From the NCBI RefSeq assembly GCF_054482525.1, contig NZ_CM137006.1: DNA of 64,000 nt, one strand, 5' to 3'. Below the pieces are notes generated by a model. It was not told where the DNA came from. It searched no databases and worked only from the letters and a program-made list of their open reading frames with translations. Position numbers and translations under genes: made by a program. Position 1 is the first letter of the stretch. Each line of letters starts with the position of its first letter. Shown one piece after another: positions 5,283 to 52,115 of this stretch.

Positions 5283-5642
5283 ATGCGTATAGAGTTTGTT
5301 TTGCCTTATCCGCCGACGGTGAATACTTACTGGCGACGTCGTGGCAACACATATTTTGTATCAAAAGTCGGTGAGCGTTATCGCCGTGATGTGGCACTAA
5401 TTGTTCGCCAGCAGCGGTTGAAATTAAACCTGTCCGGAAGGCTGGCAATAAAAATTATTGCAGAGCCACCGGATAAGCGCCGCCGCGACCTGGACAATAT
5501 CCTGAAGGCACCACTGGATGCGCTGACGCATGCCGGACTTCTCATAGACGACGAGCAGTTTGATGAAATCAATATTGTGCGCGGACTGCCTGTTCCTGGT
5601 GGTCGGCTGGGGATAAAAATCACAGAACTGGAGTGCGCATGA
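5283..5642 (+). CDS. rusA: RusA Holliday-junction resolvase
   Basis: Motifs PPTVNTYW and PDKRRRDLDNILKAPLDALTHAGLLIDDEQ match RusA. Confidence 0.85.
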   Translation: MRIEFVLPYPPTVNTYWRRRGNTYFVSKVGERYRRDVALIVRQQRLKLNLSGRLAIKIIAEPPDKRRRDLDNILKAPLDALTHAGLLIDDEQFDEINIVRGLPVPGGRLGIKITELECA

Positions 5643-6328
5643 ATAACCAGTATTTACAGTTTGTGCGTGAGCAGCTCATTATCGCCACCGCTGATTTGAG
5701 TGGGGCAACAAAAGGTCAGCTTGAAGCCTGGCAAGAGAATGCCATGTTCGATACAGGGCGTTACAGGCGAAAAAAAATCCGGTACCGCGATGAAGTGACT
5801 GGAAAAATGATAACGCGGGATAATCCACCAATCCCGGGAAAGCAATCGCTGGCGAAGGGGACGTCAATTCCTCTGGTCAGTCCGGTTGAGTTTTCGACAT
5901 CATCGTGGCGGCGGGCTGTTTTGTCTCTTGAAGAACATCATAAAGCCTGGTTGTTGTGGTGTTACAGCGGGAGTATTTGTTGGGAATATCAGATCGCGAT
6001 AACACAGTGGGCGTGGAATGAATTTAATACTCAATCCGGTACCAGAAAAATTGCAGGGAAAACGCAGGAACGCCTGAAAAAATTAATCTGGCTGGCGGCG
6101 CAGGCAGTAAAAGCAGAACTTTTTGGTGGGGAAGGTTATGAATACCAGGAGCTGGCATTACTGGCGGGAGTGACAACTAAAAACTGGTCCAAAACATTTA
6201 CTCGTCACTGGGTTGCAATGAAACACATTTTTCACCGACTTGATAGTGAGGCTTTATTGTTTGTAATGAGAACACGTTCAAAACAAAAGGCGGCATTTTC
6301 AAAGCAAAGTATTGCAAAAGTAGATTGA
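5639..6328 (+). CDS. late-gene antiterminator Q (QuuQ/phage-82 type)
   Basis: The ATG at 5639 overlaps the rusA stop (ATGA). Length and position are right for Q: after rusA and before pR'-tR', the tRNAs and the lysis genes. Confidence 0.7.
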   Translation: MNNQYLQFVREQLIIATADLSGATKGQLEAWQENAMFDTGRYRRKKIRYRDEVTGKMITRDNPPIPGKQSLAKGTSIPLVSPVEFSTSSWRRAVLSLEEHHKAWLLWCYSGSICWEYQIAITQWAWNEFNTQSGTRKIAGKTQERLKKLIWLAAQAVKAELFGGEGYEYQELALLAGVTTKNWSKTFTRHWVAMKHIFHRLDSEALLFVMRTRSKQKAAFSKQSIAKVD

Positions 6329-6340
6329 AAGGCATATATT
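6312..6340 (+). promoter_or_regulatory. putative late promoter pR' (-35 TTGCAA, 17 bp, -10 TATATT)
   Basis: Hexamers read at 6312-6317 and 6335-6340. A terminator lies about 55 nt downstream, analogous to lambda pR'/6S RNA/tR'. Confidence 0.55.
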
Positions 6341-6393
6341 TCATGCAAATCTGATATTTTGCCGATTTTGTACGTGATGGCAAAAGCAAACAA

Positions 6394-6418
6394 AACCCGC
6401 CCACAAGCGGGTTTTTTG
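6394..6418 (+). terminator. tR'-like intrinsic terminator (AACCCGC-CCACAA-GCGGGTT + T6)
   Basis: 7-bp stem followed by a T-run. Confidence 0.8.
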
Positions 6419-6522
6419 TGCCACTTATCTCGGATAGACATGGTGAATGCGCTAGTGGAGGAGATAAGGGTGATTTTTGAATGCTTGCAACATTGATTTC
6501 GTAACGTTATTATCCTGCGCCC

Positions 6523-6598
6523 GGCCCTTTAGCTCAGTGGTGAGAGCGAGCGACTCATAATCGCCAGGTCGCTGGTTCAAATCCAGCAAGGGCCACCA
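6523..6598 (+). tRNA. ileZ: tRNA-Ile2 type (anticodon CAT, ileX/ileZ-like)
   Basis: Cloverleaf is readable. CAT lies at 6556-6558. The sequence is very close to E. coli ileX as recalled, and CCA is encoded. Confidence 0.8.
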
Positions 6599-6599
6599 G

Positions 6600-6676
6600 C
6601 CGCCACTAGCTCATCAGGAAAGAGCGTCAACCCTTTAAGTTGAGTGTGCGAGGTTCGAGTCCCCGGTGGCGGTCCA
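6600..6676 (+). tRNA. noncanonical tRNA-like gene: anticodon loop CCTTTAA (nominal UUU, C at position 33), C1-G72, U73
   Basis: Acceptor stem CCGCCAC/GTGGCGG is 7/7. D stem is GCTC/GAGC. Anticodon stem TCAAC/GTTGA is 5/5. T stem CGAGG/CCCCG has one A-C mismatch. The T loop is TTCGAGT and CCA is encoded. Confidence 0.6.
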
Positions 6677-6678
6677 GT

Positions 6679-6754
<76 letters not shown>

Positions 6755-6757
6755 TAT

Positions 6758-6832
<75 letters not shown>

Positions 6833-6838
6833 GTTAGA

Positions 6839-6884
6839 GTCTTTCAGTCTGCGATGATGGGAAATCCCGGAGTGACTGAAAGAC
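6839..6884. repeat. perfect 11-bp inverted repeat (GTCTTTCAGTC / GACTGAAAGAC) with a 24-nt loop
   Basis: Read directly. Arms are at 6839-6849 and 6874-6884. Confidence 0.8.
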
Positions 6885-6891
6885 GTTTAAG

Positions 6892-6963
6892 TTATGAATG
6901 ATCGCTTTTTTTGCAAAATTGCTGTGCAGAAATACTAACCTTCGGGCAGGCGATCATTCATAA
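6892..6963. repeat. perfect 14-bp inverted repeat (TTATGAATGATCGC / GCGATCATTCATAA) with a 44-nt spacer
   Basis: Read directly. Arms are at 6892-6905 and 6950-6963. Arm 1 is followed by T7. Confidence 0.8.
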
Positions 6964-7038
6964 GCACTCTGCTTTTATTCCGATTAACTGTGGGTGGTTT
7001 GTTGGATAGAGTGCTTCCCTTACTGTATATATCGTTTC

Positions 7039-7063
7039 GCCCGCTTTTGCGGGTTTTTCTTTT
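7039..7063 (+). terminator. intrinsic terminator (GCCCGC-TTTT-GCGGGT + T-run) upstream of the holin
   Basis: GC stem plus TTTTTCTTTT. Confidence 0.7.
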
Positions 7064-7123
7064 CAAATCCCTTTCATTTCTCAGTGTAAAACTACGCCAT
7101 CCGTTATTTGCGGAGGTGAGGCT

Positions 7124-7339
7124 ATGAAATCCATGGACAAAATTTCAACGGGCATTGCCTACGGCACCTCCGCAGGCAGTGCTGGCTACTGGTTTTTACA
7201 GTGGCTTGATCAGGTCAGTCCGTCACAGTGGGCTGCGATTGGTGTACTGGGGAGTCTGGTTCTGGGCTTCCTGACTTATCTGACAAATCTGTACTTCAAA
7301 ATCAGAGAAGACAAGCGTAAGGCTGCACGGGGAGAGTAA
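7124..7339 (+). CDS. phage-21-type class II holin (pinholin S21 family), dual-start motif MKSM
   Basis: The 71-aa sequence is essentially that of S21/EssD as recalled ([33 protein letters not shown]...). Confidence 0.9.
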
Positions 7340-7343
7340 TTCA

Positions 7344-7694
7344 ATGACTCAAAACTATGAACTGATTGTGAAAGGGATCCGCAATTTTGAGAATAAAGTT
7401 ACGGTAACTTTAGCGTTACGGGACAAAAAACGCTTTGACGGCGAAATTTTTGACCTGGACATCTCGCTGGACCGTGTTGAAGGTGCCGCGCTGGAGTTTT
7501 ATGAGGCAGCAGCCAGAAGGAGCATCAGACAGGTCTTCCTGGATGTTGCTGCCGGGTTATGTGAAGGGGATGAGCAGTCGCCGGAAAAGCGCCCCGTAAT
7601 TTTAGAGGCGCAGAATGTGTGGATAACCTACAAAGGAAAGCTACCAGGAAGAATTACTGGTTCTCTGAAGACTCCTCCGGAATCACAACCTTAA
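7344..7694 (+). CDS. DUF1327 (YdfR-like) protein between holin and endolysin
   Basis: The N-terminal two thirds (YELIVKGIRNFENKVTVT...FDGEIFDLD...VEGAALEFYEAAARRS) resemble Qin YdfR as recalled. Confidence 0.65.
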   Translation: MTQNYELIVKGIRNFENKVTVTLALRDKKRFDGEIFDLDISLDRVEGAALEFYEAAARRSIRQVFLDVAAGLCEGDEQSPEKRPVILEAQNVWITYKGKLPGRITGSLKTPPESQP

Positions 7695-43603: not shown

Positions 43604-43694
43604 AAAAAAAGCCGGCATCATGCCGGCCCAAAAAATATAAACAAGACGATAAAAGGCTAATAACGGAAGCATCATGACACAGAATAATAAAAAG
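43604..43694 (-). ncRNA. rseX: RseX sRNA (5' end approximate)
   Basis: A minus-strand terminator (GCCGGCATGATGCCGGC + T7) lies at 43627-43604. In K-12, rseX lies between yedR and yedS and is transcribed toward yedS (from memory). Confidence 0.6.
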
Positions 43695-52028: not shown

Positions 52029-52115
52029 AACACATCAGATTTCCTGGTGTAACGAATTTTTTAAGTGCTTCTTGCTTAAGCAAGTTTCATCCCGACCCCC
52101 TCAGGGTCGGGATTT
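52029..52115 (+). ncRNA. dsrA: DsrA sRNA
   Basis: AACACATCAGATTTCCTGGTGTAACGAATTTTTTAAGTGCTTCTTGCTTAAGCAAGTTTCATCCCGACCCCCTCAGGGTCGGGATTT matches DsrA, including its terminator. Confidence 0.95.

Follow-up and report, generated by a model that had tools for sequence, protein, structure and literature searches.

3′ETS-leuZ is a sponge RNA derived from the 3′ trailer of the glyW-cysT-leuZ tRNA operon of E. coli; it is chromosomally encoded, ~50 nt long and almost unstructured except for its terminator. In the virulent myovirus T4, the stable RNAs species 1 and 2 (rnaC, rnaD) are located at the end of the tRNA cluster, are co-transcribed and co-processed with the tRNAs, and have remained unexplained. 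AgvB and AsxR are, like the convergent small RNAs of the moron site, prophage RNAs from the cargo interval downstream of PR′ (PMC4104026). These anti-sRNAs are 51-60 nt long, with a conserved 3′ part (~42 nt) and a variable 5′ end (Tree et al. 2014, PMC4104026); AsxR is located 3′ of the stx2 transcript and antisense to it (PMC4104026).

The locus described here is located in a window of 64,000 nt, the whole stretch of DNA that was analyzed (NCBI RefSeq assembly GCF_054482525.1, contig NZ_CM137006.1). The initial annotation had singled out positions 6833-7123, between tRNAs and a holin gene, as an ORF-free counterpart of the slot that carries stx in Stx phages, with two long perfect inverted repeats. 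The last tRNA nucleotide is 6832, and position 7124 is the first of a class II (S21-type) holin gene. As annotated, no ORF of at least 60 codons overlaps the interval; the longest encode 45 aa on the + strand and 43 aa on the − strand. Both repeats were recovered exactly: perfect 11-bp arms at 6839-6849 (GTCTTTCAGTC) and 6874-6884 (GACTGAAAGAC) with 24 nt between them, and perfect 14-bp arms at 6892-6905 (TTATGAATGATCGC) and 6950-6963 (GCGATCATTCATAA) with 44 nt between them, the first 14-bp arm being directly followed by seven T residues (6906-6912). The terminator also lies where it had been placed, with its hairpin at 7039-7054 and its T-tract extending to ~7063. A third perfect repeat of 9 bp (6962-6970/7008-7016) was absent from that list. 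The longest perfect inverted repeat (spacer 3-100) was determined in 2000 dinucleotide-preserving shuffles of 6833-7123; it reached 11 bp or more in 5 of them and 14 bp in none, as against the observed 14, 11 and 9 bp, in agreement with the earlier view that the repeats are unlikely to be fortuitous. Conserved coding in the element was ruled out because the indels in homologues are not multiples of three. The small ORFs of 32-45 aa within it are likewise disrupted by frame-shifting indels in homologues.

The repeats are the stems of one structured non-coding RNA of ~225 nt, encoded on the + strand at 6839-7063 and made up of a hairpin (H1), a Y-shaped hairpin (H2), a further hairpin (H3), a linker and an intrinsic terminator. 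The features of the locus, with the basis of each call, are as follows.

6485-6513, + strand: sigma-70-type promoter of the tRNA array, TTGCAA-17-TATTAT (promoter scan)
6523-6832, + strand: array of four tRNAs, namely CAU, Lys-like UUU with C33, Thr UGU and Gly UCC (ARAGORN, Rfam tRNA matches, RefSeq annotation of a homologue)
6839-6884, + strand: module H1 (inverted-repeat search, MFE fold)
6892-6963, + strand: module H2, a Y-shaped hairpin (inverted-repeat search, RNAalifold consensus, pair counts)
6892-6906/6948-6963, + strand: basal stem P2 of H2 (4 compensatory pairs)
6908-6915 (UUUUUGCA)/6925-6932 (UGCAGAAA), + strand: inner helix P2a of H2 (RNAalifold consensus)
6916-6924, + strand: loop of P2a, AAAUUGCUG
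6939-6946, + strand: mini-hairpin CC-UUCG-GG of H2
6962-7016, + strand: module H3, an extended hairpin (inverted-repeat search, consensus fold, pair counts)
6964-6971/7007-7014, + strand: outer helix of H3 (perfect repeat 6962-6970/7008-7016)
6979-6989/6996-7006, + strand: G·U-rich inner helix of H3
6990-6995, + strand: loop of H3
7017-7038, + strand: linker from H3 to the terminator, A/U-rich, unpaired and variable among variants (fold, variant comparison)
7039-7063, + strand: intrinsic terminator GCCCGC-UUUU-GCGGG followed by U5CU4 (terminator scan)
7064-7123, + strand: 5′ leader of the holin gene with the Shine-Dalgarno sequence GGAGGUG (7112-7118)

The + strand of 6833-7066 folds with a minimum free energy of −80.9 kcal/mol (z = −5.5), a value that 0 of 200 shuffles equalled, and the − strand with −61.3 kcal/mol, ~20 kcal/mol weaker. 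Across relatives from Escherichia, Shigella, Enterobacter, Yokenella and Salmonella, stem pairs are kept in 96-98% of cases, as against 34-50% with shifted partners. In H2 and H3, 97.9% of 752 stem cells are paired (34-50% with slid partners), the covariation score was matched by no shuffle, and 8 pairs show compensatory changes. In H1 (16 variants), 95.6% of the cells are paired (39-49% slid), with two-sided changes at 3 pairs. The covariation analysis across related prophages that had been proposed as a check found the repeats conserved, with compensatory changes at 11 pairs in total. The covariation carries less weight than the cell counts suggest, because the lineages in which these changes arose independently are few (two or three main types and their recombinants). 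Counted over the stems, 131 cells are G·U (90 + 41) and 11 are A·C (7 + 4), a ratio of ~12:1; read as − strand RNA, stem pairing would drop to 87% and 82%. The large excess of G·U over A·C therefore indicates that the fold is functional solely as + strand RNA. The element thereby shows the generic mark of a structured RNA, namely pairs that are retained on one strand by compensatory and wobble changes. Stem mismatches are seen in some recombinant copies (L024, L087 and L008).

Beyond the 11-bp stem of H1 lie an internal loop and, at the apex, a small hairpin (UGGG-AAAU-CCCG); the segments CUGCGAUGAUGGG and GGAGUGAC are almost without variation. The interior of H2 is almost unchanged from genus to genus, and all variation in P2a is G·U-compatible, with the wobble on the + strand only. 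The run of seven T residues after the first 14-bp arm was rejected as a terminator tail; it forms the 5′ strand of P2a, in which UUUUUGCA is paired with UGCAGAAA. An attenuator using the same run was dropped because HK639 does not conserve the alternative pairing (6851-6858 with 6898-6905), and no conserved case was found of riboswitch-like competition between the H3 and terminator pairings. In H3, the 3′ strand GGGUGGUUUGUUGG is invariant and its partner strand variable; the outer helix has 4 compensatory pairs and occurs in three sequence versions (ACUCU/AGAGU, AUCUC/GAGGU and ACUCC/GGAGU). Across genera, then, the stems vary and the loops are almost invariant, the latter comprising UUUUUGCAAAAUUGCUGUG, ACCUUYGGG and GGGUGGUUUGUUGG.

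The element is flanked by transcription signals. The −10 hexamer of the tRNA-array promoter ends 9 nt upstream of the first tRNA, and this promoter is likely to be the start of the element-carrying transcript in the lysogen; in 78 of 97 distinct homologous contexts a similar motif precedes the array at a similar position, despite differing surrounding sequence. The first terminator 3′ of this promoter is the one at 7039-7063, with a 6-bp stem (5 G-C), a 4-nt loop and, directly after it, TTTTTCTTTT; in lysogens, the RNA is presumed to have its 3′ end there. In HK639 the terminator is compensated (CCUCGC-UUCG-GCGAGG) and is annotated as a terminator in GenBank. By strict criteria, 63 of 103 contexts have a terminator-like hairpin 3′ of H3. 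Many E. coli copies have a weakened terminator stem. TTGCAA-type −35 boxes occur in H2 on both strands with poor, unconserved −10 matches, and the scan flags no internal promoter there.

The element was found in 521 of 5426 complete E. coli genomes, with at least 90% identity in each; carriers include E. coli 042 and Shigella flexneri. It is also present in Shigella, in a Stx2f-converting phage and in the Salmonella prophage Fels-1, and diverged copies are carried by HK639 (76%), Fels-1, Enterobacter hormaechei and Yokenella. In a scan of one genome per species, the H2 core was detected only in Escherichia, Shigella, E. hormaechei and Yokenella, besides 4 further chance matches. The usual site is after the last tRNA of a promoter-bearing prophage tRNA array and before the first terminator; in ~84 of 104 distinct contexts the element is directly 3′ of tRNA-Gly(UCC), at 7 nt from its CCA in the window. 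One variant array carries Val UAC. The flanks are diverse (35 upstream and 21 downstream clusters, with several Q and holin types), and the many unrelated lysis cassettes are 60 to >600 nt away. The element is modular: mosaic junctions within or beside it have given hybrids with mismatched H2 arms and copies with H1 and H2 without H3, and H2-H3 is also present beside degraded tRNA arrays in L008 and HK639.

In Fels-1, L058, L111 and L116, ORFs separate H2 from the tRNAs or from H1. In the latter three, H2-H3 remains complete despite the insertion upstream and still closes the unit on its 3′ side; in Fels-1, H2 is kept and H3 is not. The idea of a cargo slot therefore holds in so far as ORF cargo is accepted at these four loci, but the 290 bp themselves are a conserved module and not an empty site. 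The Stx2f phage phi467 carries stx in the interval from Q to the tRNAs and has an undamaged element, flanked by tRNA-Gly and the holin. H3 is truncated by IS elements in L026 and L067, so at least decaying prophages can do without the element.

Among the interpretations offered in the initial annotation, a structured late-leader RNA or sRNA fits best, given the compensatory and G·U-compatible stem changes on the + strand only. The reading we favour, to which we assign a probability of about 0.5, is that the element forms the 3′ trailer of a prophage tRNA operon and that this trailer, once released, would be a stable RNA and act via its invariant loops. In a lysogen, the promoter at 6485-6513 would drive a transcript across the four tRNAs and the element, and this transcript would end at 7039-7063, whereby the holin gene would be kept silent. 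Excision of the tRNAs by the ordinary tRNA-processing enzymes (RNase P, RNase E) would free the trailer as a stable, hairpin-protected RNA with the terminator at its 3′ end. During lytic growth, the element sequence would be inside the Q-antiterminated late leader, and Q-modified polymerase would be expected to proceed past the terminator at 7039-7063. As the loops are almost invariant and the stems drift with compensation, we infer loop-specific contacts with a partner, which could be another RNA (a target or a sponge) or an RNA-binding protein, Hfq and ProQ being examples. Features of the Hfq/ProQ type are present in generic form only (the U-tail of the terminator and a linker rich in A and U). 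On this reading the element would be a trans-acting prophage small RNA and more than a spacer. The analysis itself establishes its structure and strand, its conservation and modularity, the linkage to tRNA arrays and the promoter and terminator signals; that the RNA is transcribed in lysogens, freed by processing, stable and active in trans is what we infer.

So understood, the element would resemble 3′ETS-leuZ in being a spacer from the last tRNA to the operon terminator that is freed by tRNA processing and acts in trans. It differs in being four times longer and phage-borne and in having three conserved hairpin modules, and its release and sponge role are putative. T4 species 1 and 2 would be its counterparts as structured RNAs (~120-140 nt) directly after phage tRNA genes, the stability of the element being a prediction. 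The likeness is one of position and description; the element is not known to be related to the T4 RNAs in sequence, belongs to temperate lambdoid phages and is located upstream of the lysis cassette.

The position and orientation of the element would also be explained by a cis role in the late transcript. A possible though doubtful alternative is a cis-acting leader of the late/lysis transcript, in which the hairpin stack shields the mRNA 5′ end and insulates the holin gene. Excision of the tRNAs from the Q-dependent late transcript would leave the downstream mRNA with a 5′-monophosphate, and stable hairpins 7 nt past the CCA would block 5′-end-dependent attack by RNase E; in lysogens, hairpins and terminator would keep the constitutive activity of the tRNA promoter from reaching the holin gene. 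Such a role is consistent with the high stability of the structure, with an element that is always on the late-transcription strand between tRNAs and lysis cassette, with the start of H1 (or of H2 where H1 is absent) a few nucleotides past the tRNA 3′ end, and with terminators that are always downstream, at times two to four of them. Yet generic protection does not need invariant loops, and the loops are what is best conserved across genera. H2-H3 is moreover retained where ORFs intervene, and hence away from the new 5′ end, and the element is joined to lysis cassettes that are unrelated and at very different distances.

The tight link to the end of the tRNA array could also point to an RNA partner of the array, a stable structured product of the same transcript with a part in the conflict over tRNAs; it might inhibit the defence nucleases with which the host cleaves tRNAs or serve them as a decoy, modulate tRNA processing, or help the phage tRNAs to mature. 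We regard this as unlikely. It would resemble, in spirit, the T4 species 1 and 2 RNAs, and if true it would make the element a temperate-phage counterpart of these long-unexplained RNAs, so that the role of tRNA-cluster RNAs could be tested in an easily manipulated lambdoid prophage. The Thr UGU, Gly UCC and CAU tRNAs, and the Val UAC of one variant, overlap those reported to be depleted by the P2 OLD tRNase, whose translation arrest is reported to be rescued by phage tRNAs (bioRxiv 10.64898/2026.07.10.737580). Against this reading, the modules have no sequence similarity to the tRNAs of the array, ARAGORN calls nothing tRNA-like there, and H2-H3 survives both beside degraded arrays and with ORFs between the tRNAs and the element. 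Of the narrower suggestion of a processing site for the tRNA transcript, H1 alone is a possible case.

Perfect, palindrome-like repeats, mosaic junctions in or beside the element and moron insertions inside the interval would each suit a feature of the DNA itself, such as a protein operator, a linker for module recombination, or a miniature transposable element or scar of cargo exchange. This, too, we regard as unlikely. The excess of G·U over A·C cells is without meaning for duplex DNA or a cruciform, and the operator or DNA palindrome proposed earlier is rejected; the changes of P2a, moreover, are all wobble-compatible on the + strand. A scar or MITE is likewise rejected: the census that had been suggested for a multi-copy, MITE-like spread gave a single copy for the window and, per genome, a median of one, every copy being chromosomal and none on plasmids, with no homologue met elsewhere or reversed. 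The inverted repeats are three internal hairpin stems in series, none of them joins one end of the unit to the other, and neither terminal inverted repeats around the whole unit nor target duplications were seen. Least credible is a processive antiterminator of the put type, an RNA by which polymerase would be modified in cis to pass downstream terminators. H2 and H3 are abutting stem-loops upstream of terminators, and the element-bearing HK639 has an RNA antiterminator annotated elsewhere in its genome, but the H2+H3 covariance model gave no match to this annotated putL-like RNA, whose fold differs, the late operon is already served by the phage Q protein, lysogens would be killed if transcription from the constitutive tRNA promoter ran on into the holin gene, and the HK022 put RNAs are ~70 nt long and located just past early promoters (PMC9378689).

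The element was compared with described RNAs. No match to it was found in Rfam 15: a search of 6200-7400 at E<=10 gave only the tRNAs and chance matches, among the latter a C/D-box snoRNA that stems from GAUGAUG...CUGA in H1. STnc100 (RF02076; Rfam gathering score 47) gave no cmscan match in 6200-7400 at E<=10 and none window-wide at gathering, and the same search recovers it in neighbouring loci at 52-138 bits. STnc100 copies adjoin the element in HK639, Fels-1, L006 and L008. Like the element, STnc100/PasD is ~200 nt long, highly structured and terminator-ended, and is encoded on the late strand in the interval from Q to the lysis genes, near tRNAs and cargo genes; HK639-type copies of the element even have a second terminator that resembles the PasD 3′ end. 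STnc100 differs in sequence and fold, however, and is not tied to the end of a tRNA array. BLASTN (word size 7) against the pasA, pasD2, pasB and pasC regions of E2348/69 gave chance matches of at most 16 nt; pasD1 differs from pasD2 by 4 nt. The kinship to EHEC anti-sRNAs suggested earlier was not supported, as AgvB and AsxR (RF02702, RF02703) and Esr41 (RF02676) gave no Rfam match at E<=10. The element shares with AgvB and AsxR the cargo interval downstream of PR′ (PMC4104026) but is ~225 nt long and on the sense strand. No similarity was found to the IpeX region of DLP12 (nmpC-essD, K-12), which is likewise non-coding, belongs to a lambdoid prophage and immediately precedes a holin of the S21 type. 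The put RNAs of HK022 and HK639 are, like the element, adjacent stem-loops from a phage leader upstream of terminators, but they are located 3′ of early promoters. svsR of prophage NC-SV is unrelated and sits at the cI 3′ end. A full-text literature search with the conserved sequence strings found no paper, and in the records listed or inspected no RNA feature is annotated at the element, where two phage records have a hypothetical protein. On the strength of these comparisons, the element is a candidate for an undescribed RNA family.

About one tenth of complete E. coli genomes thus carry an element that lacks an RNA annotation in the records inspected. Should it prove to be a stable RNA, produced constitutively from the tRNA promoter of the prophage, it would add a widespread family to the prophage RNAs able to reprogram host regulation and would be a ready candidate for Rfam. 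It offers a concrete, testable example of a phage tRNA-operon trailer with conserved structure. More broadly, the interval from Q to the lysis genes appears to be composed of separable RNA modules (tRNAs, the element, STnc100 and terminators) with protein cargo in between.

A few observations concern the flanks. The CAU tRNA of the array is called Met by ARAGORN and Ile by RefSeq. A sequence GATGATG...GGG...CCC is common to H1 and tRNA-Gly and prompted the idea of a tRNA origin of the element; in local alignment with the four tRNAs, H1, H2 and H3 scored no better than shuffles, and the idea was dropped. Neither ARAGORN nor Rfam calls a tRNA besides the four of the array, which ends at 6832. 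On the other side, 7064-7123 is part of the lysis cassette module and outside the element, and 7090-7123 is found without the rest of the element in H36/H86. A 10-bp inverted repeat (7109-7118/7165-7174) spans the Shine-Dalgarno sequence of the holin gene.

The region around the element, the conserved structured RNA at window 6839-7063 (+), is the late-control region of a lambdoid prophage. It is laid out as follows.

5633-6328, Q-type antiterminator ORF
6386-6421, terminator-like hairpin, presumably tR'
6485-6513, sigma-70-type promoter, 3′ of this hairpin
6523-6832, four tRNA genes: CAU (Met/Ile2), Lys-like UUU with C33 (weak, 44 bits), Thr UGU, Gly UCC
6839-6884 (+), hairpin module H1: 11-bp stem with an internal loop and a small apical hairpin
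6892-6963 (+), hairpin module H2: Y-shaped, with a basal stem (P2), an inner helix and, 3′ of the latter, a mini-hairpin CC-UUCG-GG
6962-7016 (+), hairpin module H3: abuts H2; outer compensated helix and inner G·U-rich helix
between H3 and the terminator, A/U-rich variable linker of 22 nt
7039-7063, terminator
7064-7123, holin-proximal 60 bp, part of the lysis cassette
from 7124, class II (S21-type) holin, followed 3′ by a YdfR-family ORF and then lysozyme (names taken from homologous records)

The initial annotation had described an ORF-free cargo slot at 6833-7123 with two perfect inverted repeats. Both were recovered by a repeat search, one of 11 bp (6839-6849 / 6874-6884) and one of 14 bp (6892-6905 / 6950-6963), the latter forming P2, together with a third of 9 bp (6962-6970 / 7008-7016). 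The predicted terminator was returned by a terminator scan as a hairpin at 7039-7054 with a T-tract, and an ORF scan found no ORF of at least 60 codons overlapping the interval. In 2000 dinucleotide-preserving shuffles scored by their longest perfect inverted repeat, at least 11 bp was reached in 5 and 14 bp in none; the repeats are not fortuitous. A coding role was rejected, as the short ORFs are disrupted in relatives by frame-shifting indels; a hypothetical protein is annotated at the element in two phage records, and the E. coli records listed have no annotated feature at the match.

On the + strand, 6833-7066 folds into three successive hairpin modules and the terminator (-80.9 kcal/mol, z = -5.5), against just -61.3 kcal/mol for the - strand. 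The seven T residues noted after the first arm of the 14-bp repeat are the 5′ strand of the H2 inner helix (6908-6915 UUUUUGCA / 6925-6932 UGCAGAAA), the 3′ strand of which shows only wobble-compatible changes in relatives (UGUGAAAA, UGUAAAAA). The covariation analysis across related prophages, which had been proposed as a check, revealed compensatory pairs in H1, H2 and H3. In H2+H3, 97.9% of 752 stem cells are paired (18 distinct sequences), compared with 34-50% when the partners were slid by 1-3 columns; for H1 the values are 95.6% (16 variants) and 39-49%. Eight pairs in H2+H3 and three in H1 are changed on both sides, the compensatory changes stemming from a few lineages only, and the H2+H3 covariation score was matched by no shuffle. 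Three versions of the H3 outer helix occur, each compensated relative to the others, and the terminator stem is likewise compensated (GCCCGC/GCGGG in the window, CCUCGC/GCGAGG in phage HK639). Mismatched stems occur in some recombinant copies.

Compensation alone would also be compatible with a DNA palindrome, and it is an asymmetry of wobble pairs that decides the matter. G·U cells in the stems number 90 + 41 and A·C cells just 7 + 4, and for the same helices on the - strand pairing would drop to 87% and 82%. Selection has thus acted on an RNA transcribed in the tRNA/late direction. The element is thus a conserved + strand structured RNA module, as one option of the initial annotation had it; a DNA-level reading is possible but less supported, and the scar and operator options found no support. 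Nor is the element a MITE: its covariance model hits the window only once, which rules out a MITE-like distribution.

The element is widespread and structurally well defined. Of 5426 complete E. coli genomes, 521 carry the interval at ≥90% identity, with a median of one copy per genome and no plasmid-borne copy among these carriers. The copy in phage HK639 is only 76% identical; other diverged copies are found in E. coli prophages, Salmonella phage Fels-1, Enterobacter hormaechei, Yokenella regensburgei and Shigella. It lies directly 3′ of tRNA-Gly(UCC), the end of the array, in ~84 of 104 distinct contexts. The array has a promoter-like motif (TTGCA-type -35, TATTAT-type -10) of its own in 78 of 97 contexts, at most 55 nt 5′ of the first tRNA and at a similar position though the surrounding sequence differs; the first terminator 3′ of it is the one after H3. 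The flanks are mosaic (35 upstream and 21 downstream sequence clusters), several unrelated Q proteins and holins accompany the element, and part of 7064-7123 is found in other loci without it (homologue comparison). The element ends a promoter-tRNA array-terminator unit and is independent of the protein genes around it.

The modules are separable. H2-H3 without H1 is found directly 3′ of tRNA-Gly in Yokenella and in the prophage loci L025, L036, L037 and L128, and H1-H2 without H3, followed by a copy of STnc100, in loci L006 and L007. In Fels-1, L058, L111 and L116, H2 is separated from the tRNAs or from H1 by ORFs. Small ORFs at Fels-1 (L005) 1751-2113, L058, L111, L116 and L036 occupy either this position or one just 3′ of H3, so that cargo is inserted at the module boundaries of the element; several of the inserted ORFs are predicted to encode secreted or membrane proteins. 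The proposed cargo slot thus holds in part: the interval does take cargo, upstream of H2, while H2-H3 (in Fels-1, only H2) remains the 3′-terminal part of the unit. In the Stx2f-converting phage phi467 (LN997803; locus L142, 2598-4792) stx2f lies between Q and the tRNA genes and not between the tRNAs and the holin; the element is intact there between tRNA-Gly and the holin. IS elements interrupt two copies within or just 5′ of H3, one continuing as a transposase ORF (L067) and the other as an apparent IS terminal repeat (L026).

Stems drift and compensate across relatives. Between Escherichia and Yokenella, by contrast, little or nothing changes in the H2 interior (UUUUUGCAAAAUUGCUGUG ... ACCUUYGGG) or in the loop and 3′ strand of H3 (GGGUGGUUUGUUGG), a pattern that, judged from the alignment, is the opposite of that of a mere spacer. 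Variation in H3 is confined to the 5′ strand and absorbed by wobble pairs with the invariant G/U-rich strand, which points to a constraint on that strand beyond pairing. Because the loops and not the stems are most constrained, and because H2-H3 acts as a 3′-end module whatever lies upstream, a trans-acting small RNA is favoured, either an RNA regulator/sponge or the ligand of an RNA-binding protein. Within a lysogen, transcription from the tRNA promoter would yield a single RNA carrying the four tRNAs and the element and ending at 7039-7063, where the terminator would also shield the holin gene from this promoter. The trailer would be freed by tRNA processing and stabilized by its hairpins and terminator, and the invariant loops would touch a specific partner. 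An E. coli sponge RNA, the 3′ trailer of the glyW-cysT-leuZ tRNA operon, may be the closest mechanistic precedent; the stable RNAs that end the T4 tRNA cluster would be a looser one. The main alternative is that the element works in cis within the late transcript, protecting the new 5′ end after tRNA excision and insulating the lysis genes. Such a role accounts for the position and stability of the element but leaves unexplained both the invariant loops and the persistence of H2-H3 away from tRNAs. Readings as a put-like RNA or a counter-defence factor are also possible, with less support.

Many E. coli copies have a decayed terminator (homologues of 7039-7054): the 3′ arm is GCGG or GCG instead of GCGGG and the T-run is longer, so transcripts from the tRNA promoter should be stopped less efficiently before they reach the holin gene. 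Copies of the HK639 type (L001, L023, L077, L128, L129) carry a second terminator (AAGGCYGCC...GGYGGCCUUUUU) 3′ of the first, similar in sequence to the 3′ end of the PasD/STnc100-type RNAs given in the supplement of the EPEC RIL-seq study.

The element represents a family not described before, within the known class of prophage late-leader / tRNA-operon small RNAs. No Rfam 15 family matched the interval even with the cut-off relaxed to E ≤ 10, and the literature searched held no paper containing the conserved sequence strings. Homology to EHEC anti-sRNAs, another earlier suggestion, was not borne out, as the AgvB and AsxR families gave no match; Esr41 was also without match in the interval (Rfam accessions for all three from the Pas preprint). 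STnc100 has no match in the window; the same Rfam search found it beside the element in HK639, Fels-1, L006 and L008. Neither the Pas loci of EPEC E2348/69 nor the ipeX region of DLP12 is similar to the element. The putL-like antiterminator RNA of HK639 is unmatched by the covariance model of H2+H3 (R1) and folds differently. ARAGORN finds nothing tRNA-like, and the modules are no closer to the neighbouring tRNAs than shuffles.

The tRNA array overlaps the list of tRNAs reported to be depleted by the P2 OLD tRNase, whose arrest of translation phage-encoded tRNAs are reported to relieve (bioRxiv 10.64898/2026.07.10.737580), and so may serve counter-defence instead of, or besides, rare-codon supply. 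One array variant among related loci ends in Val UAC. The second tRNA (6600-6676) differs in anticodon among arrays that are otherwise alike: by ARAGORN it is Lys UUU in 47 contexts (50 including arrays with the first tRNA undetected), Arg UCU in 10, UUA ("Stop") in 1 and Phe GAA in 1, with ~8 unreadable. In the window, its position 33 is C in place of the usual U.

The short RNA expected from the late promoter to tR' (6344-6417) is weakly similar to isrK and isrJ of Salmonella prophages (E = 0.02-0.055); its HK639 counterpart reaches 34.6 bits with the isrJ model, whose gathering score is 37. The holin Shine-Dalgarno (TGCGGAGGTG) is paired with intragenic holin codons by a perfect 10-bp inverted repeat (7109-7118 / 7165-7174), which adjoins the dual start MKSM and probably governs which of the two start codons is used, or when the holin is translated. 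Elsewhere in the window, Rfam matches were obtained for the sok antitoxin RNA in the prophage (2784-2958) and, farther along, for the host small RNA genes rseX (43604-43693, -) and dsrA (52029-52115), indicating that the window extends out of the prophage as far as the dsrA region of an Escherichia-type chromosome.
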